Assembly: GCF_963676685.1 (NCBI RefSeq)
Contig: NC_092346.1
Span: forward strand, 6,572,001 to 6,636,000
Direction: 5' to 3'
Source: Mytilus edulis
Lineage: Eukaryota
Length of the DNA stretch: 64,000 bases
Shown here: piece after piece, positions 10,950-45,278 of the stretch
Layout: the number at the start of each line of letters is the position of its first letter
How positions within the stretch are numbered: the stretch's first letter is position 1
The notes under the pieces: model-generated
Seen by the model: only the letters and a program-made list of their open reading frames with translations
Databases searched by the model: none
Told to the model about the DNA's origin: nothing
Program-made: the position numbers and the translations under genes

Positions 10950-11915
10950 TCAGTACCAGAATCTATGACAAACGAGACGATTTTAATTTTTAAATTATCA
11001 ATAACCCCCACCTTAGGAGCAATATACCAACTTCACTAAGCTCACTTGTATATCCGATATATACTTCCAAACTTATTCGGTATTCAAGAGCTTGCAGTTG
11101 CTACTCAGACTTTGTTAAACGTAATTAGTGTCTGATCAGAAAATTGACAAACCAGGGGTAAGTCAAAGAACGTCTCGTCCTTTTTCTAGAAAAAAAATAT
11201 CGCCGGTACCAAGATTGTTTTGATAAATATTCTGTATCAACCTCACAAATAATACACGATGGTCTTGACGTAAAGATTCTGGGTACCAACATTATTTATT
11301 ATCTTAATAACGTGTTATAGTATTCTTTTATTTGTCTTTTTGAATATTACTTTTATTGTTTAGTCTGTTTTTGGTGCTATCCATTTGACGTGGTTCTGTA
11401 CTTATACTATGATACATCCCGTCATTGGGTTATTGTGCTATGGTTAATTGTGTATTCTGGTGTTTCATTTTAGCGTACATGCTTTGTCTATATGTATTTG
11501 TTTCTTTGTTACATACTTTTTGATTTTATAGAGATTAAGACTATGACACAATGTTGACTGATGTATCCATATTTTGACATGTTTACCAATAATGTCTGTT
11601 TGTTTTGATTACAGATCGATTTTACGTTTTCAATATAATAGAATTTTATGCGACTGTCATATAAGTGAGAGGTTTATGTTGCTATAAAACCAGGTTTAAT
11701 CCTCCATTTTCTACATAAGGAAATGCCTTTATCAAGTCAGGAATAAGACAGTTGTTTGATGTGTTTGAGCTTTTGATTTTGTCACTTGATTATAAGAAAC
11801 TCTTCATTTTAAATTTTCCTCGGAGTATTTTTCGTGGTTTAACATTTTTCTCAGTTGTCAGTTTATTTTAGATCTATGAATTTGAAAGTCCCCCTCGTAT
11901 CTTTCGCCCCTTTTT
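10950..11915 (+). mobile_element. Degenerate fragment of the same Penelope family as 58.5-60.1 kb
   Basis: ctcagtaccagaatctatgacaaacgagacgattttaatttt matches ~58850-58890; similarity continues through the RT 3' end. Confidence 0.75.
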
Positions 11916-12191
11916 TACTATAACTCACATGTAAAAACTTTCAAATATTTTTTTTATGCATATTTACATCATGTAAGACTACCATGACTATCGTGGTAAT
12001 AGTTGTCATCAGCCAAGGCCTCTATGACTTTAATTTGAACTGCTCTCTCCAACAAAAAACTTTAGAATGACTTTTATAATTGTTCTCAATATTAATTATT
12101 CTCAATCGATTTATGAATTGCGAACAGCGGTATACTACTGTTGCCTTTATTTATAATATTCTTATTGGAATTTTTCACACCAATAAATATA

Positions 12192-12503
12192 GAAAAGAAG
12201 ATGTGGTATGATTACCAATGAGACAACTGTCCACAAGAGACCAAAATAACACAGACATTAACAACTATATGTCACCGTAAGGCCTTCAACAATGAGCAAA
12301 GCCCATACCGCATAGTCAGCTATAAAAGGCCCCGATATGACAATGTAAAACAATTCAAACGAGAAAACAAACGGCCTATTTGTGTACAAAAAATGAATAA
12401 AAACAAATATGTAACACATAAACAAACGACAACCAATGAATTACAGGCTCCTGACTTGGGACAGGCACATACATAGATAATGGGGCGGGGTTAAACATGT
12501 TAG
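12192..12503 (-). repeat. Distal 3' tail of the Penelope-like element / high-copy dispersed repeat
   Basis: gaagatgtggtatgatt(a/g)ccaatgagacaact...acaggctcctgacttgggacagg motif; related pieces at ~4600-4765, 29320-29450, 42955-43262 and 43895-44200. Confidence 0.7.
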
Positions 12504-13276
12504 TTGATGCAAACGTTCCGAGAGGCCACGAGGAGACCTTTCGGATACCTTCTGGTGGATCTGAAGGCCGCTACATCCGAACACTTGAGATTACGTAGCG
12601 ACGTCTTGGGCGGAGGCGAGGACGACGCCGAAGCCGAGGACGAAGACGTCGATTCCACCGGAAGCGAATCGAACACCATGGAACTCGGGGAAGAAGACGT
12701 CGGAAGCGAATTGGACCTGATGGCTTGCCGCGCATGCGGACTGGTATTTGCGCACGCCCGGGGACTCGAGATCCATCAAGAGAGGGACTGTGGCGACGAA
12801 CCATCCGCCAAACGATGCAGAACGGAAGACGACGGCGTGGAGGGAACCTACGTATACGAACTGGAGTGTTATCTCGAAGACCTGCCGGCAACCGTGTGTT
12901 GTATCGATGAACTGCCGGATGAAGTTTCGAACAGGCCCCGCAGTTTCGTCGTCAACACGGACGACTGCGACGGCAAGGGCATTCACTGGGTGGCGTTCCA
13001 CTTCCCGCGAGAGGGACCCGTCGAATTTTTCGATTCGTTCGGACGTTCTCCGGAGTATTACCTTCGTCGCTTCAGGAACGTGCTCATCGCCAATGGACCT
13101 AAATACAGATTCAGTACGACTCAAGTGCAACCGGGATCATCCGATACGTGCGGACTCTATTGTGTACATTTCGTGAAGATGAGACATAGAACCATTAGCA
13201 TGGAAGACATTGTGAAAGATTTTCGTCTAGAGACTTGATGAGTAACGACGACAAACTGCTTGCATTGTACGAATGA
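12504..13276 (+). pseudogene. Packaging ATPase C-terminus + acidic linker + CxxC/H zinc finger + adenain-like cysteine protease (fusion ORF, 3' part)
   Basis: ATRRPFGYLLVDLK (Polinton ATPase C-terminal motif), CRAC...H...C, NTD..GIHW..FFDSFG..VQ..TCGLYC. A 1-nt deletion near 13222 shifts the end; the true stop is 13274-13276 by comparison with the copy ending at 19501. Confidence 0.85.
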
Positions 13277-13464
13277 ATGTAATAAATATATATGAAACTG
13301 ACATCTGCGTTGGTATTTTTTCTATTTGCCCCGAACACGATACGATTAATCGGTGATTGATGTTCACATCATGAAGAGTTGCTTCCCTTTTTTGTATCAG
13401 AGTTCCTCGATACGATCACGTGACCTTGCCTCGTTGAATTGTCACTCCACGAGAGATATATATA

Positions 13465-14998
13465 TGTTACAGGCATTTTTCTAAATTTAGGCATTTTGTA
13501 AAATGACTGAAATTTTTAGGCATTTTCTAAAATGCCTGCATGATTTAGGCATTTTACAAATTGACTATTTTTTTCAGGCATTTTATAAAATGCCTGAAAA
13601 AAATGTAAGGCATTTTACAAAATGCCTAAAAGACTAAAAACTGAATGGAATGCACTCAAAATTTAACGACTTGAAATATCAAATAGATAATTCTATTATA
13701 TCATTTAATATAGCATGCAATTTAAACAGTTGCAGTTTTATAATTGTAATTAAATCATTTACATAAACACTGAAGATGACAATTAGTGTTGCTACATGTA
13801 ATGTTTGGGTGACAGCGACTGTTACATATTTGTTCTGACTTTTTGCAAAGACAACTCTTAGTGTTACATCTAGTCTAACCACTAGCACTACAGCCACATT
13901 TTGTGTAACCCTGACCATCACACAAAGAAACTTTACTGAAAGCTTTTTTAAAGGATATTTCATTATCATAATTGCAGATTGAATAGCAATAAAGTTCCTG
14001 CCAGACAGTTCAAACTGAATCCTGGTGTAACTTGAGTCCACGTAGTATTCCCAGTTCAATGAATTGGTGCATGCTAAATTTCCAGTGGCAAATATGTCAT
14101 GCATATTCAATAGGCCTATGAGACAACTTAATGGTAAAAGAAGTTGTTAACTCATTTTTTATGTGATTATGTCCTTGTTTTTACTTGACCAATTGTTAAA
14201 ATATTACTTGAGTGCATCATATTTTTATTTTCAATATTTTGCAAGATGAGCAATTCAGGAGTAGTTTCACAAAAAAATTACGACTAAGATTGATCGTAGG
14301 TCATGAACAATCCAGTATACTTACGATCAATCTTATTAATAAGTTTTTTGGTTGTGAAACCGACTCCTGGCTCCTAGGAGTCTACAGAATTGACACTTGT
14401 TTTGAAAACTTTTAAATAAGTTATAGCTCAAGAGAAGAAATGCACCTATTTTTGCATATGATAATAATCCGAGGAATGTCCTTTTATTCCAATCTTAACT
14501 TTGTTCAAAATAGTTTCATATTTTTCTCTGTTCCATATAACACGTTTCAATTAGTTGGTTTATAAATCTTTGTTCTGGTGTAAGAACAACATGCCCTTCT
14601 GTCATAATGAAAGAAGATCATTAATGAAATACAGAGTGAGTACTAACTCATAGTTGTTGCTCTATGGAGTTTCTAATTACAGACATTAAAACTAATAAAA
14701 CATGAAAATTTAACCTGCAGACTACATTTTTAAAGAATAATCTTAACTTTATTTTACTCAACCCTTCTTTGTAGCTTTACAATATATTTCTATCATCTAT
14801 TTCATGTATTTCATATTTACACAATTTGGTTGGATAAGGCAATTTGTGAAATTTTCATTAAAAATTTCAGGCATTTTACAAAATGACTAGTTTTTTTTAG
14901 GCATTTTCTAAAATGCCTGTCAACTTTAGGCATTTTAGAAAATGCCTGAAAATTCAGTCATTTTACAAAATGCCTAAATTTAGAAAATGCCTGTAACA
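13465..14998 (-). mobile_element. Ginger/KRBA2-type DNA transposon remnant inserted in the Polinton terminal repeat
   Basis: TIRs TGTTACAGGCATTTT...AAAATGCCTGTAACA with subterminal AGGCATTTT repeats, inserted in a TA run and absent from the sister repeat at ~19680. Minus-strand remnant GQGYTKCGC...C..KSCLCKK....CNSRCH. Confidence 0.75.
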
Positions 14999-15836
14999 TA
15001 TATATACAGAGTTGCTTTCCTTGTTTTGTACCAGAGTTAACGTTCCTCGATACGATCACGTGACCTGCTGTCCATATATGGTCATATATGTTTATTTTGA
15101 TTTTTGAGTGAAAATAAAAGTGTTTTTTTCCAAATTTGGTCATCATTTCCATATATGATCATAGGGTATCTGGTCGGTTTCCATATATGGTCATGTATTT
15201 TATTTTGATTTTTCAACGGAAATAAGGTTTTTACCAAATTTGGTCATGATTTCCATATATGGTCATAGGTCGTTTTGTCGATTTCCATATATGGTCATGT
15301 ATGTTTATTTTGAGTGAATATAAGGTTCTTACCAAATTTGGTCATAATTTCCATATATGGTCATAGGGTATTGTGGTCGCTTTCCATATATGGAATTCAT
15401 CATATGGTGTCCAAGAGTCATAATCCGACATCTGGTGCTTCCGTTTTGATATATAGCCCTTCATACTAGAATTGGCAAAGATCTACGTGAGTCATACTGT
15501 TCATATGACGTCAGCGCCTTAGCGCCTTGCGTTTTTGTGGTTGCATAAAACATCATAACGAACAGAAAAAATACTTCTCGAATTTTCATACGTACATCAT
15601 GGTATTGTCATGTAGTGAGTCATGTCCTGATCTTGCATCCTGATGATTCATGGTTGCGTCATGACCAAATATGACCGGCGTCCATCCGTCGTGATTCATC
15701 TTCCTTACTTCCGCTGACGTTATTAGGGCTAGTATATGCCCATATATCATATTGGGGGCGGGGCATGCGCATATGACGTCAGCGCCCTAGCGCCCTGTGT
15801 TTTTGGGGTGGCTCAAACTGAACCGTCCCTACTACT

Positions 15837-17352
15837 TGTGATGAGATGATTGAAGCTGTTAATTTTCTCCTTGTTAATATTTATGTACCTTTCGGCAACA
15901 AAGTTAATTGACAGGTTGTAGGTATCCCCATGGGCACTAATTGTGTCCCTTTAATAGCAGACTTGTTTTTGTACAGTTTATGACTTAACTCAGTAAAGAC
16001 CCGTAAAAAAGGCATTTAATTGATAAATTCAACAACATTTACCGTTATCTTGATATTTTTTCGTTAAATATTCAAGAATTTTCTCAATATACCGCTAAAA
16101 TTTACCCCAAGGAACTTACTTTAAGTAAATCAAATTTATACGGGAATAACTGTCCTTTCCTTGATTTCGATATTTCGGTTTTAAACGGGAAACTCAACAC
16201 TAAAATTTACGACAAAAGGGACGATTTTTCGTTCCCTATTGTTAGTTTTCCAATTTTAGATGGTGATGTTCCTTTGGCACCATTTTACGGTGTTTATATT
16301 TCACAGCTCGTTCGCTATGCCTGTGTCTGTTGTGACGTTTTTGATTTTAACGAACGCAATCTATGTATTACTCGTAATCGATATTGGATATCGTTACCAA
16401 TAAATTACTTAAAACTTTACTAAATTTTTCAATAGATATAAAGATTTGGTTTTGAAGTTTGGTTGTACCTGTAGAAAACTTATTTCAAACGGGATAGCAC
16501 AACCTCATTTTTACGGAAATGATGCTAACCGTGCCCGGAAATTTAGAAATGATCCTTGTAAACTTATCGCTTTTTAAAATAAACTTATTCTTAAAGGTTA
16601 TCAATCCAACACTGTAATAAGATCATTGAATATTTTTTTTATTGGTATATATATTGATTTTGTTAGGGACGACATCAAAAGTTCAATGTAGGATAAAAAA
16701 AAAAACTTAATTCACATAGTTTTTTCACTGACCCCCCCCCCCCCCCCCCCCCCACCACACCCCCTTCTTAACTTAATTTGGGAAAAATTGATTTACCAAT
16801 AGGGATATATGTATAAATCGATTTTAGATATACAAAACAGAATTTTACCCCCCCCCCCCCCCCACCCCCAAACTATTTGATTTAAAGTTTTTTTTATATT
16901 TCATCGATCTTTTGATGTCGTCCCTTATCAGTAAATTGAAAGCAAACTAAATCTTACTAGTATGTTATATGCATATACACATTCATGGATCTACAGTCTG
17001 TCGATACCTGTCACTTGGCATTGTACAAGGTCATGTTTTTCTCTGAATATTTATGACGTCTTTACACTAAATCAATTGGATGTTGGATGTGTACCTATTG
17101 ATAGTTTAGTCTTAGATGCATGATTTTTTTATTAGTTGTTAGTGGCTTTGAACTAGCTGTCAGATAACTGCGAACACTCTCAGATCTGTTCCTAGTGTCT
17201 TTTTGTTGTCGGGATGTACAAGTACCAGGCCACGTCCAATTGTATTTTTGTCATTCTGATGAGGTAAGCCTTTTCAACTGATTTTTATAGTTCGTTTTTA
17301 TGTTGTACTGTTATACCACTGTCCCAGGTTAGGGGAGGGTTGAGATCCCACT
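15837..17352 (+). mobile_element. Penelope-like retroelement, 3' part of RT and 3' tail (inverted continuation of 20520-21960)
   Basis: Begins TGT GAT GAG ATG ATT = CDEMIEAVNFLL.NIYV...QVVGIPMGTNC.PLIADLFL...YDK.DDFSFPI...SQLVRYA, with several frameshifts and stops. Confidence 0.85.
16666..16924. mobile_element. PIF/Harbinger-type MITE inserted in the Penelope 3' part
   Basis: 16-bp perfect TIR GGGACGACATCAAAAG / CTTTTGATGTCGTCCC, TTA target duplication, internal poly-C runs. Confidence 0.8.
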
Positions 17353-18192
17353 CGGATATATCTGTCTACCTAGCGTGGCGACGGGCTGGCGATCGACCAC
17401 AAATATAATATAATACAACTATAAGAACTAAACTACATAAAGAAAGTAATTAGTGGTAAGGAGAGGGACTCTTTTCTATGCGCATGATATTACTTTCAAT
17501 TATACACTTCGTGTTATTTTGGTTTTATTTTTATATTATAAGTTTTTATAAAAGATTTTAAAAATACAAACAATTATAAATCAAATTCTAACAATTCATT
17601 CTACTGTCTAGTTTAAATTGAGTTTCAAATATCATTCTTTAACAAAATCTATATTATCATACATATAAAGCAAGTTATTTGGGGTGAGGAAAGGGGACTC
17701 TCAATTCATATGCTATGTTTTTTTAATTATTAACGCCACGCCATTTTCTAAACTCATAAAAAATACTAGGTTTATAAAGTTGTTATAAATATTATAAAAA
17801 AATAAAGATTCAATTGTAATTAAAGTTCTTTCCACCATTGATATGAAAATATTAAATTTTGGATTTAAAATATTAATTTCAGCGTCAAATGATAACTTTC
17901 CAAAAAATATAAGGTGTCTATACAAAAAGATATAAATAACGGAGATAATTTTCTACTTCCGGTTTAAAATATGTTACTTCCGGTTCTGTCTTATAGTTTA
18001 CTTGACGCCGATTCCAAAAATATATGGTTTTACATACTTTTACAATAATTTATTACAACAATTAGCTACTTCCGGTTTACAAAAGGTCACTTCCGGTTAG
18101 ATTTTTCAACGTCATATTGCTTGCAATCTAATCCTACATGCCTTACACGTGTTGCTTAGTTCGTCTCCAAAACTATGTTTGACAGTTTCCCA

Positions 18193-18737
18193 GAGGACCA
18201 GGTAGTGACAGTTTCTCCTCTGAGTCGGATCTTTCCCGAAATACAGGTTCTGATTCACAGCCACCACCGACAGGTTCTAATGATGCGATCCTTCCGTGAA
18301 CAAGTCGTTGATGCGACGGTCTTTGGCCGAGGTCGACATCAGGTCGTCCAGCACGAGTAAGTTTCTGGTCCGTGCATCGAAGAAGTGGTCGGCTTCCAAC
18401 TTGGTCGGGATACCGCGAACGAATTCCACGGTGGGCACCACCGTCTTTCGAATCTCGTCGTAGAGGGGTTGCCATCGTCGGTACAGCCAGACGATCCTCT
18501 CCGGCACCGGGTTGCACATGGATCTTCGCAATGCTTCCTTCACGAAAAACGTCTTGCCGCAGGAAGTCGGACCGGAGACGATCATGGTGAACGGGTGTTG
18601 AAAACGAAATATTTCTTGCGTCGCATTTTGCGGTGGCGGCGGCGGCGGTGGTGGTTCGCCAGTACCATGCTTATTTCGATGATGTCTCAACATGACGTCT
18701 CTTTCGAAAACATTCTTTGACAGTTAGGACACTCCAT
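18193..18737 (-). pseudogene. C2H2 zinc finger + poly-Pro + A32/FtsK-like packaging ATPase (fusion ORF, 5' part)
   Basis: MECPNC...(frameshift)...MLRHHRNKH, Walker A GPTSCGKT, Walker B LLVLDD, FTEGSHH*NLS..QNLY..QRRNCHYLVL, then an abrupt break at ~18193. Confidence 0.85.
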
Positions 18738-18765
18738 CCTCACTTCAAGGGTGGAACTTTCCCTC

Positions 18766-19187
18766 TTATAACTTTTGTCGGAAATGAAGCAAGCAGAACA
18801 CGTGATCATCTTTCAACGGCACACGCGAAGTCGATCGTCTCTCAAGGTGATTTCCAATATTTCCGTCTCGCCTCCCCTCGACGCGAGGTAGAGCGGTCTC
18901 TCGAAAATTATCTCCGTGGTCTCTTCTTTTCTGATGGCTACGGATTGAAGCAGGGGCAGGTAAGTGTCTCTGACGTAAGATTCATCCCTTACCAGATCGC
19001 AACACACGTACATCCTCTGCGTAGACGTTTCAAAAGCCGGTACAAAGGTCATCTCCAACAGAGCACACTCCCACGTTCCTTTCATTAAGTGTGATCTAGG
19101 TAAACGTATTCTGAACTGTCCTCCCCTATTCTGGGGGAAAAGTTGGAGCGAGTCTCCACTATTGACGAATAAGTAAAACTCGTCCAT
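18766..19187 (-). pseudogene. Compact Polinton/adintovirus-type minor capsid (penton)-like protein
   Basis: N-terminal FYL..NS.DS...FP.N...F.I.LP....G.WE.AL.E and C-terminal YVCCDLV...PLL...PLY...EILEITLRD motifs. A frameshift near 18815 restores a terminal ...CLLHFRQKL*. Confidence 0.7.
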
Positions 19188-19262
19188 GGTTTTGATTAAG
19201 CATTCGATCCTCTTCCTCTTATAACCATCGCCGCCGCCGCCGCCGCAACCGCCGCAGCCACC

Positions 19263-20519
19263 TCGGACGTTCTCCGGAGTATTACCTTCGTCGCTTCAGG
19301 AACGTGCTCATCGCCAATGGACCTCAATACAGATTCAGTACGACTCAAGTGCAACCGGGATCATCCGATACGTGCGGACTCTATTGTGTACATTTCGTGA
19401 AGATGAGATATAGAAACATTAGCATGGAAGACATTGTGAAAGATTTTTCGTCTAGAGACTTGATGAATAACGACGACAAACTGCTTGCATTGTACGAATG
19501 AATGTAATAAATATATATGAAACTGACATCTGCGATGGTATTTTTTCTATTTGCCCCGAACACGATACGATTAATCGGTGATTGATGTTCACATCGTGAA
19601 GAGTTGCTTCCTTTTTTTGTATCAGAGTTCCTCGATACGATCACGTGACCTTGCCTCGTTGAATTGTCACTCCACGAGAGATATATATACAGAGTTGCTT
19701 CCCTTGTTTTGTACCAGAGTTAACGTTCATCGATACGATCACGTGACCTGCTGTCCATATATGGTCATATATGTTTATTTTGATTTTTGAGTGAAAATAA
19801 AAGTTGTTTTCCAAATTTGGTCATCATTTCCATATATGATCATAGGGTATCTGGTCGGTTTCCATATATGGTCATGTATTATATTTTGATTTTTCAACGT
19901 CAATAAGGTTTTTACCACATTTGGTCATGATTTCCATATATGGTCATAGGTCGTTTTGTCGATTTCCATATATGGTCATGTATGTTTATTTTGAGTGAAA
20001 ATAAGGTTCTTACCAAATTTGGTCATAATTTCCATATATGGTCATAGGGTATTGTGGTCGCTTTCCATATATGGAATTCATCATATGGTGGTCCAAGAGT
20101 CATAATCCGACATCTGGTGCTTCCGTTTTGATATATAGCCCTTCATACTAGAATTGGCAAAGATCTACGTGAGTCATACTGTTCATATGACGTCAGCGCA
20201 TTAGCGCCTTGCGTTTTTGTGGTTGCATAAAACATCATAACGAACAGAAAAAAATACTTCTCGAATTTTCATACGTACATCATGGTATTGTCATGTAGTG
20301 AGTCATGTCCCCGATCTTGCATTCTGATGACTCATGGTTGCGTCATGACCAAATATGACCGGCGTCCATCCGTCGTGACTCATCTTCCTTACTTCCGCTG
20401 ACGTCATTAGGGCTAGTATATGCCCATATATCATATGGGGGCGGGGCATGCGCATATGACGTCAGCGCCCTAGCGCCCTGTGTTTTTGTGGTGCCTCAAA
20501 CACCTCACTCCCTACTACT
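19263..20519. repeat. ~1.26-kb terminal repeat of the mini-Polinton (second copy 13039-15836); includes the 3' end of the protease gene
   Basis: Near-identical sequence from TCGGACGTTCTCCGG to CCCTACTACT in both copies. Confidence 0.93.
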
Positions 20520-21960
20520 ATCACACCTCCAGTAAGTATATCTACCATATTTACCTTTCTCATTAGAGAAGAAGGCTTTAAATGAGTTGCAGCAAATATA
20601 TTTGCATTCAGATTTACCAAACGACCATTTAATTAAATAGGAAAACTTTTGTGTAATAAGATAGTGTGGAATTGCAGTGTAAAGAGTAGAAAAATCAAAA
20701 CTGTCAACCGAACAAAAAGGACCATCAAAAACACGTAATTTATCTAAAACATCCAAAGATTTTTTTACACTCCAAAAAAGGTTTATATCACTATGTTCAT
20801 ATATTTTTGCTCTTCTACTTCGCACTTTATTTGACCTTTTTAACTTTTTTGGATTCGAGCGTCACTGGTGAGTCTTTTGTAGACGAAACGCGCGTCTGGC
20901 GTATATACTTAATTTAGTCCTGGTATCTATGATGAGTTTATTTATTACAATAGTTTATGATAAGCTCTTTAATAGTAGTTAATGAACTTGTTAAAAGCAC
21001 TGAAAGATTAGTTGTAGATAAAGGCAACAGTAGTATACGGCTGTTCAAAACTCGCGTAAACGATGGACAAAAAATAAAATCGGGGTAACAAACTAAAACT
21101 GAGGAAAACGCATTAAATATAAGAGGAGAACAACGACACAACATTAAAATCAAACACACACAGAAACGGACTAAGCATTAGACAAAATCCGATGTAGAAC
21201 ACTTACTAGAGGCCGAGATGAAACGATATTTAAATGGTTTTTTGTTGTTGTGTAGTTTAGGTAGCCAATACATAGTAGAAACCTTCAAATGTTCAGAAGA
21301 AGTCTTAAGCTTTGATGTGGTTGTGATATGTTTGTTTACTATATGACTCTCTGTGGAGCGGATGGACTTCAATGTAGATAAATTTGAAATTTCATTCTTA
21401 AGAACGTCCGTGTAGTAATTACGGCATACCACCACATTGTTGTCTGCTTGGTAGGCCGGTACAAACACAACCCGCTTTGAAATTTCTTTAAGTTTATTTC
21501 TTATTCTGGAAATCGGTGTATTATGTACTCTATTATTTAATTCTAAATTATTTTCAAAATGTAATATTCTCTTATCTACCACATTCATACATTTATTTAA
21601 ATAAGAATCGAGAGGTTTTTTTTTATCAGATTTTCCTTGTTTACACCACTTTTTACAAAACGAGGAAAGAGCATCGTTGGTGACTTGACTACACTCTTTC
21701 CAATCTATTTTAGATGGAAAACGATATTTTGGTCCTTTTTTCAAAACGTTTTTAACCTCTCTGTCCTGGACGATATTGAGATCCCCTGTAATAACATGGC
21801 CATAAGGGACATATCTAAATTTCGACAATTCACAGTTTCAAGTTAAGGGAGTATTATTATCTATATTCACGTCTGATGTAACCGATGTATAATTAAAAAT
21901 TAAACTTCTGCTGGTTTTTTTTGTATGTGTATAAAATTATAGGTGGTTCATCAAACAACT
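20520..21960 (-). mobile_element. Penelope-like retroelement, degenerate, 5' part of RT ORF
   Basis: ORFs 21178..21828 (GHVITGDL, KGPKYR, YWLPKLH..P.KYRFI) and 20505..20825 (DSFDFSTLYTAIPH), interrupted by small insertions; ends at ...YTYWRCD (TGTGAT). Confidence 0.85.
20857..20902 (+). ncRNA. Hammerhead ribozyme copy with core mutation (CUGGUGA)
   Basis: gagcgtca-ctggtga-gtcttttgtagac-gaaa-cgcgcg-tc-tggcgt; lies in a short insertion inside the Penelope RT. Confidence 0.65.
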
Positions 21961-22009
21961 TTAGTCCTTGTTATAATAGTTATCAAAGTTACCAGGATTA
22001 TAATTTAGT

Positions 22010-22796: not shown

Positions 22797-25290
22797 TCAC
22801 ATTTTTTTCTGACTTGAATGTTGATTAATAATATTAACTATATCTTTGTAACCTTTTCTAGTAGCAAAAGTTAAAGCTGATTGACCCTCAGAGTCACATC
22901 TATTATAGTTTATCCCTCTTTCTAGCAACAACTTTACTATGTCTTCATGTCCGAGCTCACAAGCCTTCATTAAAAGAGACGCACCCTCATCATCAAATAA
23001 ATTCTGGTCTCCACCTCTATCTAATAATATTGATACTACTTCTGCATGACCATTATCACATGCCTGCAATATATGTGATTGGCTTATCCTCTCACATTTA
23101 TTATAATCTGTGCCTCTGTCTAACAACAACTTTACTATTTCTATATGTCCCTGTTCACAAGCTATCATTAACGGCGACTCATGCCAATCATCACATTTAT
23201 TATAGTCTGCTCCTCTGTCTAATAGCAACGTTACTATTTCTGAATAATCATTTTCACAAGCCACCATTAAAGGTGATTTACCGCCCCTGTCACATTCATT
23301 ACAGTCTGCTCCCTTGTCTAACAATATCTTTACTATGTCTGAATGATCATTTCCACATGCCTTCATTATAGGTGACTCAGCCCACATGTTACATCCATCA
23401 CAGTCTGATCCTCTGTCTAACAACATCATAACTATTTCTGTCTGACCATGTTCACATGCCTTAAGTAAGAGAGACTCACCATCATCGTCCCATATATTAT
23501 GGTCAGCTCCTCTGTCCAATAACATCATAACTATTTCTGTATGGCCTTGCTCATAGGCGATCATTATCGGAGATTGACCCAACCTGTCACATTTGTCATA
23601 GTCGGCTCCTTTGTCTAACAACATTTTGGCTACTTCTATTTCACCACGTTCACAAGCTTTCACTAAAGTTGGCTCTTCCGAACTGTTACATTTATTATAG
23701 TCTGCTCCTCTATCAACCAACATCTTCACTATTTCGGTATGACCATGTTCAAACGCTTTCCTTATAGGTGACTTATTAATATCATCGCATTTATTAAAGT
23801 CTGCTCCTCTGTCCAACAACATTTTTACTATTTCTGTGTGACCATATTCACAAGCCTTCATTAAAGGTGACTCGCCGTCATTATCACACTTAGTATAGTC
23901 TGCTCTTTTGTTCAACATTATCTTTACAATTTCTGTATGACCATTTTTGCAAGCTGTCATTACGGGTGACTCGCCATATAAACTGCATCGTTGACTGTCT
24001 GCTCCACTGTCTAACAACATCATTACTATTTTTGTATGCCCATTTTTACAAGCTTTCATTGCAAGTGACTGACCATAATCATCATATTTATTGTAGTCTG
24101 CTCCTCCTTTTAACAACATTTTTGCGATTTGCGTATGACCATATTCACACGCCACCATCAAAGGCGACTGTCCCCATATATCACATTCGTTACAGTCAGC
24201 TCTTTTGTCTACCAATTTCTTTACTATTTCTGTATGACCAAGTACACAGGCCTTCATTAATAGTGACTGGGCCAAGTTATCACATCTAATAAAGTCTGCT
24301 CCTCTATCCAACAGTAACTTTATTATTTCTGTATGACCATGCTCACAAGCCTTCATAACAGGTGACTTCCCATCATTATCACGCACATTACAGTCTGCTC
24401 CTGTGTCTAATAACATCCGTACAATTTTTGTATAACCACGCTCACAAGCCTTCATTACAGGTGACTCATTTTCACCATATGTATTATAGTCTACTCCCCT
24501 GTTTAACAATATCTGTACTATTTCAGCATGATTATGTTCACAAGCTTTCAATAAAGGTGAATGACTATAATCATCTGTTTTATTACCGTCTGCTCCTCTT
24601 TCTAACAAGATCTTTACTATTTCTGTATGACCGTGTTCACATGCTTTCATTAAAGGTGACTGGCTATCATAATCGCATATATTAAAGTTTGCTCCTCTTT
24701 CTAACAAGATCTTTACTATTTCTGTATGACTGTGTTCACAGGCTTTCATTTAAGGTGACTGGTTATCATAACTGCATCTATTAAAGTCTGCTCCTCTTTC
24801 TAACAAGATCTTTACTATTTCTGTATGACCGTGTTCACATGCTTTCATTAAAGGTGACTGGCTGTCATAATCGCATATATTAAAGTCTGCTCCTCTTTCT
24901 AACAAGATCTTTACTATTTCTGTATAACTGTGTTCACAGGCTTTCGTTAAAGGTGACTGGTTATCATAACTGCATCTATTAAAGTCTGCTCCTCTTTCTA
25001 TCAAGATCTTTACTATTTCTGTATGACCATGTTCACAAGCCTTCATTACGGGTGACGCACTTTCATCATCACATCTATTAAAGTCTGCTCCTCTTTCAAA
25101 CAAGATCTTGACTATTTCTGTATGCCCGTGTTCACAGGCTTTCATTAAAGGGGACTCATCAAAATAAATATAGTTGTTAACATCCACACCCAAATCACAA
25201 CACCATAAAACCAAAGAAATGTCACCCATAATGCAGCATTTTAAAAGAACATCATAACCGTCATCATGAAGAATATTTGTTTTAAGTTTA
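22797..25290 (-). repeat. Ankyrin-repeat coding array (99-bp units, ~25 repeats)
   Basis: Repeated SP(L/V)MKACEHGHTEIVK(I/M)LL(E/D)RGAD motif in ORFs 22797..24749 and 24750..26048. Confidence 0.95.
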
Positions 25291-28200
25291 GGCTGATCAC
25301 AAATATGTGCTAGCTGTCTCTGGTGAGTTATATCTAATGTATCTAAATGAAGCATAAAGTGTCGTCTGAATTGTTGCATCTTCATATTGATGTTACTAAA
25401 TACATCTTGAACTTTCCCTTTTGACCAGTCATCAATCATTCTCTGTATGTACATTTGGTGATATGTTGGTGGTATAATAGTTAAAAACTGATCCATCTCA
25501 TCGGTGCATGCTAATAAAAACCTCTCCTGGATCAGACTACTATCTGCATTCTTTATCAAACATTGTATTATTTTCTGTCCAAAGAAGTAAGCAAGAAAGT
25601 CAAATATTTTATCATGTATTATCTTGTACATGTTTCCGACTTTCCTGATGAATGTATCTTTAAGCGAGTTCAGTTCATGCCGTAATAAAAGCCTTGGTGT
25701 TGTCCTATCCAGTCTACATGCTTCACATGTGTCTTCAATAATAATCCTAGTTTCTACATTTACCTCATCTACCAATATTTCATCGTTCAATTTGTTGTTA
25801 AATATGACACATAAAGCCAGAGCACAATATTTAGTGTAATGCCCTTTCTTGAGTAGCTGGTCAATTTCTGCTTCATAAACTGTAAATGGATTCTGGAAGA
25901 AATCTTTAACGTTAGGTCTAGGACTATCATGGTATAATTTACATAAAAGAGGAAAACAATCATATAAATCACTATATCCAGTAATCTCAGGAACTTTCGT
26001 GTTTAGATATAAATCTGCTATTGATTGTTTTTCAGTTTTAACAAACATATATTTTCTGACAAGAGGTTACATTCACATGACTTGAAAACTGACAAAGATT
26101 CAAATTGTTTATCCTTATATACGTGTAAGTGACAAGCAGCAATAATTCTTGTTCGTTTATTTCCAAGAAGCTTTTTGATATCCTCCATGACAGGTTCCCA
26201 ACGTTTAATGTCACGCTGTTTAACAGAAAAGTTTCCGCAGAAATCATCAATAACAAACAATATTTTTTCTCTAGGATTGTAAAACCTCACAATGTCACAT
26301 GGCTCTGTAACCAGAAGAACATTAAACTCTTCCTCGGCCATTTGTAAAGCTACATGTCGGAGAATGGCTGTTTTTCCTACACCAGAGCTAGCAGTAATCG
26401 TGACACAGTTGTGTTCCTTTATACATTTGAATACAAGCTTGGCAGCTCTTGTTTTTATAAACATCTTATCATCATTTTCCTTCCAGGCTTTAAGCGTTTC
26501 TTTAAATCTTGCTAAAATATGAACAAGGAACATTTCCTTATAATTTTCATTTATACAAGTAATAGCCCGAGATTAAAATATTTGTATTGACATATTCATG
26601 TGCCAAAAAAAACCCTTAAATAATCAATGTCGTTCAAAAAATAATCTTCTAACAATTTCAAAACATTAGCACATTAAGTTAAAACATCTAACATTCAAAA
26701 TATTAACCTGTTTGACTGTTTACGTTTAACAGTTTATTCTCTTAGCGTTAACCTTCGACATTCAAAAAGATAATATGTTCTCACAAAGTCTACCTTTATA
26801 GCTCCTTCATTATTACCCGACTTGAATTTAAAAGAAGTAAATCACCTAAAACTATACTATTTTATTTCTTGTAAGACTTCATAGAACCTGCAAATTCAAC
26901 CTTCATTTTTTTATATATATAAAACACATGTCATAAAAATAATCTCAAACTTACCTCTTATATTACAAGGAACTGTATCATCGTAGGACGTTTTCAACCT
27001 TTTAATTTCATCTGTCATTTCAGTATGATCCTCTTGGAGTTCTTCATAAGATCTTTTCAGTTCTCTATGGTCTCCTTCGAGTAGAAGTTCATGATATATT
27101 TTCAAACTGTTTAGTGACTCTTTTAGATTCTTAATTTCATCGTTAGAGCATTTAATATCCTCTATTATTTCTTTGTTTGTTTGATCCAGTGTTCTGATTC
27201 TTAGATGATCACAGTCCTGTTTTATTTTCTGTCCACCTAATCTCCCAATGGCCTATAAAAATAGAATCCAAAAAAATACTGAACTCCGACGAAAATTGAA
27301 AAAGGAAGTCACTTATCAAATGGCAAAATCAAAAGCTCAAACACATCAAACGGATTGATAACAACTGTCATATTCCTGACTTCGTACAGGCATTTTCTTA
27401 TGAAGAAAATGTGGGATTCTTCCTGGTTTTATAGCTAGCTAAACATCCCACTTGTATGACAGTCGCATCGAATTCCATTATATCGATAACAATGTGTAAA
27501 CAAAACAAGCAGACATAAATAAATGGGTAACAATGTAAAATAATAGGCATATAGCAGTCAACATTGTGTTATAAACTTAATCACTGTGAAAACAAACAAA
27601 TATGTAACAAAAGAGCACATAAAGGCATATAGACAAAGCACATAAGCAAACATTAAAGATTAGAATACAAAAATAAATCTAAAGTACAATAACACAATGA
27701 CGGGATGTATGAGTAGTTTGTGGGGTTCGTATTGCTTATTCTTTAGTTTTCTATGTTGTGTCATGTGTTCTATTGTTTATCTGTTTGTCTTCTTTCATTT
27801 TTAGCCAGGCGTGATCAGTTTATTTTCGATTTATGAGTTTGACTGTCCTTCTGGTATCTTTCGTCTCTCTTTTATTAATCTATAATTTTCACAAAAAATA
27901 AAAACTGTCTTTGCATGTCCTATTACTAATAATAAATTTCATGTCAATTTATAGACAATTTAAATGCATGATACAACTCCGTATATGTCTTTTTTTGTAC
28001 ATCTGTAAATAAAAAGTTCATTGCATTGTTTTGTATACAAGAGTATATATAAACAAAAAAACGATTTAGTATATCTTTCCTTTATGAATAAAAGTATAAC
28101 AAAAGTTTATGAGAAACTGGTGTTAATGCTGGTATCACATAAAGTAAAACTTCACATTATTAATAATCTATAAAAACGAGGCCAGGGTCAAAAACGCATT

Positions 28201-37197: not shown

Positions 37198-37860
37198 ATG
37201 GGTTCCGTTATAAAATATTTATTAGGACTGAAAAACCCATCTCTTGTGGCTAATTTTCAGAAATTTTGTCAAATAGAAATTTTACCTGGAACTGAGTCTG
37301 AAAAAAAGGATTCTGAGTCTGACTACCTGTCATCCTCATCTCATGACAGTCATGTGCCCAATGGAGATTTACACCAAAGACTTGCCAAAACCAATGGGTT
37401 TGTTCAGAATAATAGCAATAGTGTCATTAATAACGAACACTGTAGTCAAAATGGCTCTATACACTCAAATAATGTTGACCACATGGAAAATGTGCAAAAA
37501 GACTGTATACAATCAGAGGATAAACAAGAGACCAAGTATATTGTGCATAGCAAATTTCTATATTGGACTTTTCGATTGGGAGCAGGATTTGGAAATGAAT
37601 TCTTTTATTTGACATTTTTCACATTCTGCTTATGGAATCTCAACAGCTTAGTAATGCGACAAATGGTCATTATTTGGAACGCCGGAATGTATTTAGGGCA
37701 AGCAGCAAAAGATATAATTGAATGGCCTCGTCCATCTTCACCACCATGTGCCAGGTTAGAGAATAGATACTTGGAAGAATATGGAATGCCGTCAACCCAT
37801 GCGACTGTTGGGGTTATAATTCCCTTTGGACTAATTATTATTGGCCATAGACATTATGAG
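37198..37860 (+). CDS. SGPP: Sphingosine-1-phosphate phosphatase (SGPP1/2-like, PAP2 family), exon 1
   Basis: ATG at 37198, GFGNEFFY, KDIIEWPRP (PAP2 motif 1), EYGMPSTH (motif 2), GT donor at 37861; 221 codons. Confidence 0.93.
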
Positions 37861-40765
37861 GTAACTATAGACAACTTTCAAGTTTGTGCACTTTCCTATA
37901 TAAATTTCCTACATGCATGTCACAATGCATATGTTATTAGGTTACAGTAAGAACATGAAGAACGTTCAACGTGTTCAATGACGTTGTTTTTGCCGATTAA
38001 CATGATTAAGTTGTAAATCATTCATAAAAAACAACTCGAGATCGGTCATGGTAAAAATGTACAAAATGTAGCTATGCATACTTTAAACATGTGTAACTTA
38101 CAAATGTAGCAACCTTAATTGCATGTATTGAGTAAAAGCCCAGAACATCATAAAATGGCCAGCACTTTAGTTTAGAATTTCCTTAACATTATGTCGTTAT
38201 GAACCAATTCAACTACATTTTTGTACAATGAAACATACATTGTGCATCAGTATGTATATATATAAAGACCAATTAGGCAACACATCTTTGTGAACAATAT
38301 CATTACATGTAGGTAAGGTCTAAAAGCCCAAAAGTGGGCTTAGTATAAAAAAAAGTAGCTACAACGTACATGTACATGTACAAGTATTTTGTTTTTATGA
38401 GCTGCTGATTTATATATAATATATAGGTGTCTTCAGAGAAGTGTCTATTTTTCTTGATACATAACCTACAACTGCAACTGTAATGTGTTTTTCTAGGATG
38501 TGGAAATTTCTTTTCACCAATTGTCATGGAGTCGATTCTTAAGTTGCTGAAATGTCTAAAGAAAACGTGCTAAAAAACACATTACCTCCAGCATTTGTAC
38601 ATGTTCTTACATGTACAAAATGTACAATATACATGTACTTTACATAAATTTGTAATGAATTAAATATTACAGGTCAAAACATACATATGTACATGTATGC
38701 TACAGTTTCATTTTTTAATTACTCAATGTCCATGATGTCTGTTGCAGATTTACAAAATGTATACATGTTACAAATTGTATGTATCAGAAAACAAGTTATT
38801 AATCATACTACATGTACATGTACATTTATATAAATTTTGTTTAGAGGCCAGCTGAAGCCCAACTCAACATGCTCAAGGTGTTGGATTTTCTTGCTGTGTT
38901 GAAGACCCATTGGTAGCTTTCAAGGCCTTTTTAGGGCCTTTGGTCAGATTAATGTTGTTTCTTAGACCCATTCTCCATTTCCATTCTCAATTTTAAGGCA
39001 ACTACAATGTGTACTGATCTTATTCTTGATTTTTAACATTTTCAAAGGTCTTCTAAATGAACATTGTAATTAAAAGACCTGTCAAATTAGATGCAAAGTT
39101 GCCTGTAAAAAAACCATGGTCCTCAGGTCCTAGATTGGATTTGACCATCATGATGTTTATGATGTTGGAGTCTCATTATTGTTTGAGGAAAGATTTCTTC
39201 AGTCATTTGTTTTTCAGTGTTTCTTAAAAATAGCACTAATAAATCATGTTCAATGATGTAGACTAAAGATTGTTCAGTGAATGGGATAAGACCATTGGTT
39301 TTCCAGTTTGAATGGTTTTACACTAGTAAATTTTTTAAGCCCTTTATACATTTTGTAGCTTGCTGTTAGTTGTGAGCCAAGGCTGCGTGTTGAAAACTTA
39401 ACTTTGACCTATAATGGTTTACTTTTACAAATTGTGACCTGGATCATGTGGATAGAAGGTTGTCTTGTTGGCACTCATACGTCATCTTCTTAAATATCTA
39501 ATTTATAGATATTTAAATTTCATTTCATGGCTCAAAATTTCTTCAAGCCTTCAAAAAAAAGATTAATTTTTGTTGAAAATTCAAATGCATAAATTCTTTG
39601 TTGACTTGTGACCCATCAAATCCCCAAAAATTGGTATCCCATGAAAAATAAGGAATCAACAGTCATGACAGTCCTGCATCATTATTTTGATATACTGTTG
39701 TAGAAAATCTTAAATAAAAAGCAGAACACTGACTGTCATGACTGGAGAACAAGATTTCCCACTTGTTGAGGAAATAACAGAAAGTTTTGTCATCCACTAT
39801 ACCTAAAGGGTTTAACATCCTCTTCCTATAATAATGGAAATTACATATAGTTTTCTGATTTGTAATGCAATCACAACAAATCTCCTTATTTTGATATTCA
39901 AAGAAACCAAAGTAAAAGATTGCTTGTTAATTCAATTCAAAACTGGAAAATAAATACTGAACGGTCTGACCCAAGTTTTAAATGCAAGACAAACAAACAA
40001 AGAATTATGAAGAAAGTAAGGCAGTCACACATGTTATGCATGTAGAAAATTTTCTTTCATGGGTTATCGGTATGTCCATACATAACAATATTAGGTATAC
40101 ATGTTCTAACATTAAATGTGAAGGATAAACTCTCTGAAGTGTAGCATGCTGTAAGAGTACAAAATCTTCAGGAAAAACTTTGTCACAAAATATTCATAAA
40201 AATTAGTAGTAATATTTCAAACACCCACATGGGGGATGATACAATGCACTTGTATAAGTACAACATATGAATAGTACTAGGAATTAAATGTGAAATAATG
40301 TCAACATAATTTAAATGCCACAGACAGTATTAGCATTTTTATCATTGTGATCAATATGGTGAATTTTAAACCCATGATTGATCAAATTTTATTGATAACA
40401 ATATATCGATGTTTTGTCCTTGGTGGTTCTTTATACATGTATTTGCTTTCTTTGAAAAAAAGAAGTGCATGAATATTTTATTCAGGTCATACCCTCTCTT
40501 TTGTGTTACAACTGACACAATTTTTGATAATGAAATAAAAAGTAGGAAACCAATGTAGAACCCTAGTTTACAGACACTTAATATACATATTTTATACCTG
40601 TAGACAGTTGACATAGATTTTGTACAAATGTATATATAACTGTGTATACAAACAATATAAACAATTGATATAGATTTTACATATAGGTTAGCATAATTAA
40701 TTTAATTTTCCATTTGAACATGTTATAAACCACTTTCAATAATTGATTGATACTTGAGTATATTT

Positions 40766-44702: not shown

Positions 44703-45278
44703 GATGTCATTGTTGGAGCAGCCATTGGAATAATCCTGATCCCACTCATGTTACCATATGTAGAAGCCCTGGATAATTTCCAGGTTACCAGCATGTATAG
44801 CCCTCTAGTTGTGGTGGGAGGAGAAATATTTTTATTGTACATATACCCAAATGCAACAATTTGGAACACAGCCAAGGGGGATACGGCTACAGTGGTCGGC
44901 ATCGGAGCAGGTATAGCGGTTGCCACATGGTTGAACTATCAACTAGGTTTTATGATCCCGTCGGAGGTGGCTAAACCATATCATATACCATCGCTATTTA
45001 CAATAATTTCAATGATACCTTTAGCTGAAGTCAGACATTTAATAGGTATCCTAGTTCTAGTCATTACAAGGGCTGTTGCCAAGCCAATCACTCACAAACT
45101 ATTCTGTCTATATTATAATGTAGATAGCAAAGACGAAGAAACACAGAGGAAAATAGGCATGGAAAAACCACAAAAATTTGTTGCCTACTTTTGTGTGGGT
45201 TTCGCCGCTATATTTATAGTCCCTAATCTGTTGCGGCCTTTGGGCTTAATGAGAATGTCATTTTATACAGAAATGTAA
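44703..45278 (+). CDS. SGPP: SGPP exon 3 (terminal coding exon)
   Basis: ttttcag acceptor, DVIVG... completes motif 3 (HxxxD), multiple TM segments, TAA at 45276-45278. Spliced protein is 442 aa. Confidence 0.92.
   Translation, partial: DVIVGAAIGIILIPLMLPYVEALDNFQVTSMYSPLVVVGGEIFLLYIYPNATIWNTAKGDTATVVGIGAGIAVATWLNYQLGFMIPSEVAKPYHIPSLFTIISMIPLAEVRHLIGILVLVITRAVAKPITHKLFCLYYNVDSKDEETQRKIGMEKPQKFVAYFCVGFAAIFIVPNLLRPLGLMRMSFYTEM

Follow-up and report, generated by a model that had tools for sequence, protein, structure and literature searches.

Non-autonomous Polintons are known from fish, and adenovirus variants with extended ITRs also occur. The closest described relatives of the locus reported here are the Polintons/Mavericks, which likewise have AGT-repeat termini, a 6-bp target site duplication (TSD), terminal inverted repeats (TIRs), a packaging ATPase and an adenovirus-like protease; the relevant parts of two accounts give TIR ranges of 46-1,447 bp and 100-1,500 bp (PMC8097293; bioRxiv 10.1101/2023.08.22.554363). 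A further likeness is to copy-back or snap-back defective viral genomes (PMC13506859) and AAV snapback genomes (PMC10924063), in which one end is also the reverse complement of the other. The portions of these two sources used here describe them mainly for negative-strand RNA viruses and one parvovirus vector, and mention three more traits that recur below: a graded panhandle-to-palindrome series, helper dependence and a preferred break sequence. For adenovirus and phage PRD1, the displaced strand has been proposed to pair intra- or intermolecularly via the ITRs, restoring end homology, and the part of a 2025 account that treats this model states that direct evidence for a panhandle is lacking even in these two systems (PMC11886824). 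The replication of Polintons via a displaced single strand that pairs through its TIRs is so far a model. A literature search, in which subscription and older work was thinly covered, yielded no account of a Polinton derivative whose mirrored arms form a graded series, and the relevant portion of a bivalve transposable element survey names Mavericks only in passing.

The stretch of DNA that was analysed (64,000 nucleotides of the Mytilus edulis contig NC_092346.1; hereafter, the window) contains a 1.26-kb repeat, which the first-pass annotation had described as a terminal repeat opening in the middle of a protease gene. Comparison within the window bore out this opening: 19263-19689 is 98.1% identical to 13039-13464 and 19681-20519 is 96.7% identical to 14998-15836 on the same strand, both far above chance, and the left copy holds exactly 78 sense codons of the protease 3' end, from GRSPEYY (13039/19263) to the stop. 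The (GCC)n tract said to adjoin the left copy is indeed seen there (Table 1). The protease part of the repeat is antisense to a 140-aa ORF and the ATPase, both on the minus strand. The terminal nature of the repeat held in that both copies end in an AGTAGT Polinton-type terminus and have a 6-bp TSD in common; however, the right copy is interrupted, the termini are not identical (8 of the 32 outer bases differ), and the arms are direct, not inverted, in the window, where an inverted-repeat scan gave no inverted pair for 19263-20519. The direct orientation arose because the segment 12504-17349 was inverted after insertion, and the arms become an inverted pair only when this inversion is undone. 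Once it is allowed for, the window copy has the copy-back trait of one end being the reverse complement of the other into unique sequence. Its TIR falls within the Polinton range given in the above accounts, so far as they go, and the length alone is ordinary.

The protease was recognized as Pfam Peptidase_C5, of the adenovirus type (E 2.4e-6, above the cut-off), and the ATPase gave Pox_A32/IVa2 matches below the cut-off. Across the family to which the element belongs, the conserved cassette consists of the 140-aa ORF and one ~490-aa ORF that joins a zinc finger, an A32-like ATPase and the protease. The nearest database proteins carry Mytilus protein names. Full-length elements have, next to their capsid gene, a 140-aa ORF to which that of the family is 43% identical; the family ORF received no firm name from Pfam or from the Atlas (recognition 1820, below threshold), and we take it to be minor-capsid-like from a familiar motif. 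No tblastn match to the polymerase-like ORF or the integrase of the full-length elements (the helpers, see below) was found in window 11001-22000, and the helper 420-aa DJR-like ORF, a major capsid candidate, had no match in the element. The element is not an autonomous Polinton; it is a member of a 3-5 kb non-autonomous, Polinton-derived family. On the minus strand, TATAAGA boxes lie at 19217-19223, upstream of the 140-aa ORF and with the GCC tract just upstream of the box, and near 18770 in the ATPase 5' region.

Table 1 Features of the window copy and loci of the second palindromic family
Feature	Position	Strand	Basis
Mirrored left arm, 1257 bp, copy of right end; terminus at 20519	19263..20519	+	Sequence match
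Last 78 protease codons and stop, promoterless, antisense to gene cassette	19265..19501	+	Pfam, translation
(GCC)n tract; left edge of conserved cassette, junction hotspot of the family	19230..19262	+	Sequence, junction survey
(GGC)n tract encoding poly-proline of ATPase N-terminus, complementary to GCC tract	18627..18655	+	Fold prediction
140-aa Polinton-type ORF, frameshifted near end	18769..19187	-	Comparison with full-length elements
5' part of zinc finger-ATPase-protease fusion gene, broken here	18192..18809	-	Pfam, tblastn
Later insertion of 794 bp inside ATPase	17398..18191		Absent from other copies examined
ATPase fragment of 48 bp adjoining inversion breakpoint	17350..17397	-	Sequence comparison
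3' part of fusion gene: ATPase C-terminus, acidic linker, zinc finger, protease; frameshift near end	12504..13238	+	Pfam, translation
Right arm, source of mirror, split by insertion; terminus at 15836	13039..15836	+	Repeat match
TIR-bounded host insertion of ~1.54 kb in TA run, inside right arm	13457..15006		Repeat comparison
TSD TGTGAT	15837..15842	+	Sequence
TSD, reverse-complement copy	20520..20525	-	Sequence
3' half of host RT-like retroelement (insertion target)	15843..16658	+	Protein comparison
5' half of same host RT-like retroelement, turned round	20526..21288	-	Protein comparison
Segment inverted after insertion; breaks in ATPase (~12 bp lost) and in host repeat	12504..17349		Split features, contigs
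Second-family loci	L078:1641-9428; L084:1499-9335; L080-L081; L109; L110		Palindromes and shorter-armed forms

The locus is one insertion with one TSD that was rearranged afterwards. The inversion is marked by TSDs that are reverse complements of each other, by a host RT-like frame that was cut at the insertion and whose halves now face opposite ways (query residues 54-146 at 20807-20523, minus strand; residues 142-428 at 15825-16658, plus strand), and by the division of both a host repeat and the ATPase between ~12503 and 17349. The RT-like target is presumably a Penelope-type element, judging from a known motif. Two separate insertions, considered as a candidate history, were ruled out by the single TSD and by ATPase pieces that abut across the breakpoints. 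The intact TSD had been taken to place the copying event before integration, but this dating falls away: the same TSD outlived the inversion and two insertions and therefore cannot date internal changes, and this locus is the only one in the genome with the exact junction. An inversion that left Polinton TIRs as direct repeats has also been reported at C. elegans eri-6/7, where, in the part of that report considered here, several insertions are invoked and a host gene was reshaped (bioRxiv 10.1101/2024.01.15.575659); the window, in contrast, shows a single insertion, with an inversion that runs from the ATPase to a host repeat, and no effect on a host gene was seen.

Searches of the genome, in which 80 stretches were examined, revealed about 38 independent cassette-bearing copies of 2.5-5.6 kb without insertions, and these counts are lower bounds since several searches scored the best 40-87 candidates each. 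The copies have AGTAGT termini, and 19 of the 21 two-ended ones have a perfect 6-bp TSD. Compared with the Polintons of the above accounts, as far as these describe them, the family is short (3-5 kb versus 13-25 kb) and without pPolB, integrase and major capsid; it further differs in the fusion of ATPase and protease and in a TIR length that varies from copy to copy (about 0.26 to 2.45 kb) and reaches into coding sequence. As proposed, the left arm copies sequence from the right end, and mirrored arms are found again in many TSD-flanked copies, each at its own locus. One family copy, L058/L059 (G000 C2:6528468-6585024), has matching TSDs 56.5 kb apart; the insert, sampled at its ends, consists there of tandem copies of a repeat that L038 has acquired as well.

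The same terminal motif is also found on three full-length elements, a pair of 18.6 kb each and a third of 15.1 kb. The 18.6-kb elements carry an integrase (Pfam), a 420-aa ORF for which the Atlas gives a DJR-like lead, and a 1379+-aa ORF that contains a VSR domain, has no PF03175 match and is taken, partly from a familiar motif, to be polymerase-like. A VSR domain is likewise described in mollusc pPolB2 in the portion of the report used (bioRxiv 10.1101/2023.08.22.554363). These two elements (L071-L074; G000 C6 and C10) have TIRs that are 99-100% identical and TBP-like and PC4-like genes. Full-length relatives with TIRs that begin at the same point inside the protease had been named beforehand as refuting the copy-back proposal. 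This was not seen: the TIRs of the 18.6-kb pair are 339-340 bp with the protease more than 5 kb from the end, and the TIRs of six short-TIR family members likewise exclude it. The full-length elements are helpers rather than direct parents because their protease is only 46-47% and their 140-aa ORF only 43% identical to those of the family, so that descent straight from a full-length Polinton is not borne out; no full-length element carrying the family cassette appeared among the best 87 of 1551 candidates.

The earlier suggestion that a lost arm had held pPolB, integrase or major capsid is not supported either. No polymerase-like, integrase or capsid match was found in any of the six short-TIR copies or at 20 further cassette-adjacent loci. 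A divergent ~5-kb family with the same cassette, 50-58% protein identity and 496-bp TIRs gave no such match within 10-kb stretches either, which argues that the loss of these genes is old. The fusion gene is open in many copies and in this divergent family (L044:3133-4605; L091, L093), that is, in elements without a capsid gene. The short-TIR form was considered as a simple ancestor and doubted: helper DNA accounts for 68% of its left arm, and its right end has been exchanged at four or more different points. It is not usable as an ancestor because it is itself a mosaic with helper DNA.

Another important point is where the mirrored arms begin. Among the 27 copies that retain its inner edge, the GCC tract meets at least 10 different partners. 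The commonest junction, found in 11 copies from two subfamilies, joins the tract to the element's own ATPase GGC tract in inverted orientation, and fold-back copies with both arms intact have mirrors of 1.7-2.45 kb. The tract is joined to right-end sequence in 5 copies (at 13039, ~13093, ~12830, 13240 and 13421), to a helper-derived arm in 6, to other end types in 4 and to unrelated DNA in 1. Since these 27 were chosen for reaching the tract, and about 11 of the 38 cassette-bearing copies break elsewhere, the survey indicates many partners at one site, not that all breaks occur there. Everything to the left of the GCC tract is exchangeable, and one cassette is kept across the family. The recurrence of the 19262/19263 junction at independent loci, raised in the first-pass annotation, was thus seen for the kind of junction but not for the exact one, which has a single match genome-wide with up to one mismatch allowed and no clear microhomology.

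A GCC/GGC stem is predicted in the window by both the MFE and the centroid fold (z -3.19, with none of 20 shuffles as good), and a contig of sequencing run X3 carries an opposite-strand GCC/GGC joint. Four runs compared with a short-TIR copy yielded no new opposite-strand joints by a method that skips simple-repeat tracts. Young copies, with arms 98-99.7% identical and perfect TSDs, already have many different inner edges. In a tree of 559 spacer columns, from which L033/L034 (the same insertion as L032) and overlapping stretches were omitted, 1 of 23 branches was starred; the window grouped weakly with the long-mirror copy L036 (92/82, not starred), and the short-mirror copies L047 and L059. 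Judged by these sequences, the 11 fold-back copies may go back to a single origin or to two.

The two ends of a copy usually match. In 19 of 21 two-ended copies, the outermost 32 bases of the two termini show no more than 2 differences, so the copy-back trait of identical termini is found there, whereas between copies they are this close in only 15 of 210 pairs, and 31 distinct terminal 30-mers occur among 54 ends. Of 18 two-armed copies, the young 9 have arms more closely related to each other than to any other arm; in the other 9, which include the window, this is not so. Helper DNA is captured as well: both arms of L031, a 99.7% mirror, contain 870 bp from the interior of a helper (98.7%), L067 has the entire TIR of a helper, and L038, L042 and L057 have the first 126-135 bp of a helper TIR at 98-100%. 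Overall, the TIR shared with helpers reaches 92-100% identity in some copies, compared with ~80% over 82 bp in the window. End matching and mirrored helper DNA fit intramolecular pairing of a displaced strand and co-replication with helpers, in line with the model for protein-primed replicons (PMC11886824). The terminal ~30 bases (for example, 20488-20519 and 15805-15836 in the window) are hypervariable in combinatorially mixed small blocks, with the first 8 constant; this mixing possibly reflects origin swapping among co-replicating elements.

The window copy departs from this pattern. Its terminal mismatch is as large as that between the ends of unrelated copies, and its arms are 2.3% apart, mostly through private changes. 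Both arms have the same base at site 19952, which none of the 34 other arms covering that site shares. Over its distal 230 bp, the left arm shows higher identity to L051/L052 (96.5% and 96.1%) than to the copy's own right arm (93.5%), and the same part of the right arm is nearest to L053/L054; the two ends derive from different lineages. L047 resembles the window copy in its mismatched ends. The window copy is a degenerate, chimeric and atypical example of its family.

A second Polinton-related family, encoding a 534-aa ATPase and a 369-aa integrase, supports the fold-back mechanism. It exists as 7.8-kb palindromes at three loci (98-99.8% self-identity, with exact TSDs read at two), as a form with 2.05-kb arms and as a form with 183-bp TIRs. 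In the C2 copy, an intermediate form, the start of the single ATPase coincides exactly with the loop of the palindrome, a position that speaks for a fold-back with later trimming. By coordinates only, seven relatives (92-93%) lie 2-3 kb from pPolB matches, on the side that is mirrored in the palindromes; a 5.6-kb short-TIR relative gave no match to the helper polymerase-like ORF. The idea that a pPolB arm gave way to the palindrome has only partial support. A hairpin repeat that is abundant in the host matches the centre of the palindrome and may have set off the fold-back.

These data raise the question of how the mirrors formed. As far as sequence comparison can tell, the family offers good support for a fold-back linked to replication, and a long fold-back that was trimmed afterwards explains the data no worse than a single direct copy-back. 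We consider it probable, if by no means certain, that a long fold-back arose when the template was switched at the GCC tract during helper-driven, protein-primed strand-displacement replication, and that it was later trimmed or re-switched to 13039 and acquired a sibling end. In a displaced single strand, the GCC tract would pair with the ATPase GGC tract ~570 nt away, and the polymerase would fold back at this GCC/GGC stem to give a long mirror with 1.7-2.4-kb arms. More switching or trimming, anchored at the same tract, would then move the inner edge to 13039, and the outer ~200 bp of one arm would be taken from a sibling molecule before a helper integrase inserted the product with a 6-bp TSD; the inversion and the two insertions would follow integration. 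We infer the enzyme, the timing and the order of mirror formation, as well as formation by a viral polymerase and amplification by helpers, from the structure of the family alone. A clean copy-back on a single molecule, as initially envisaged, does not agree with ends that differ as those of unrelated copies do, and as a last step it is unsupported because 8 of the 32 terminal bases are mismatched and each arm is closest to a different lineage over its distal 230 bp.

The same locus could have been shaped after integration. If a long-mirror copy of the L031/L036 type was inserted first, a chromosomal deletion in the unstable palindrome might have made the 19262/19263 junction; its uniqueness, the inversion and two insertions sustained behind an intact TSD and the weak grouping of the window spacer with L036 (not starred) all point this way. 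We nevertheless regard such trimming as unlikely, given that young copies with perfect TSDs already vary in their inner edges, untrimmed long mirrors survive at several loci, a fold-back is needed for the mirror anyway and the mismatched termini are left unexplained. Those termini, and the mirrored arm itself, might instead have been built by ectopic recombination or gene conversion between dispersed chromosomal copies, performed by host repair without episomal replication; in favour of this, the distal 230 bp of each window arm are nearest to other copies. Simple GCC repeats are plausible hotspots of host repair. This explanation is nonetheless improbable: random exchange would hardly give L031 identical stretches of captured helper DNA in its two arms, or matching ends within 19 of 21 copies despite the diversity of terminal 30-mers.

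Somewhat less probable again is the literal initial model, in which one intramolecular copy-back on a full-length Polinton replaced the polymerase/integrase/capsid arm just before integration. It can draw on the short full-length TIRs with the protease outside, on the one private base common to both window arms and on the second-family relatives near pPolB matches (coordinates only), but it is largely contradicted by the absence of these genes from all six short-TIR copies, the 20 further loci and the 10-kb stretches around the divergent family and by the difference between the window termini. Finally, the junction and the direct orientation might be assembly artefacts around a long repeat, in a family that is multi-copy and near-identical and with no single run contig covering the entire rearranged stretch. 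This is very improbable, since the breakpoints lie in unique host/element joints outside the repeat and sequencing runs carry the joints: both inversion joints in run X1 (56 and 30 letters), one in run X6 from a different sample (27 letters) and the joint of the private 794-bp insertion in run X5. Contigs of run X1 also cross 19262/19263 with the strand switch, with only 30 letters on the short side, one below the bridging threshold, and X1 is possibly the assembly's own sample.

Returning to helper-driven fold-back, we tentatively suggest a broader picture, to which we give slightly less than even weight: mussel Polintons may carry defective-interfering satellites, small genomes that would retain a packaging ATPase-protease cassette, fold back recurrently at GCC/GGC, steal and homogenize helper origins in each round and integrate as panhandles or palindromes. 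Unlike the copy-back genomes, the family is double-stranded DNA, integrated with TSDs and with ends swapped with helpers; unlike the adenovirus and PRD1 panhandle, its evidence is fossil and comes from an integrating animal element. If this picture is true, the genome would preserve, as fossils, direct traces of how an animal Polinton replicated through a single-stranded panhandle. Dozens of integrated copies match the predictions of the displaced-strand model in their end pattern, mirrored helper DNA and arms from the predicted hairpin. The mechanism would have a countable, population-testable footprint, suggesting defective-interfering genomes in an endogenous DNA virus lineage, and the value lies in the family rather than in the single window copy.

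Elsewhere in the window, long ankyrin-repeat frames with about 23 copies of 99-bp units occupy 22797-26533 on the minus strand, and before them comes an NTPase-like frame that contains a Walker A motif; they are apparently intronless and broken up into several ORFs. Exon-like ORFs at 37198-37950 and 44748-45278 belong to a membrane phosphatase gene, presumably sphingosine-1-phosphate phosphatase-like.
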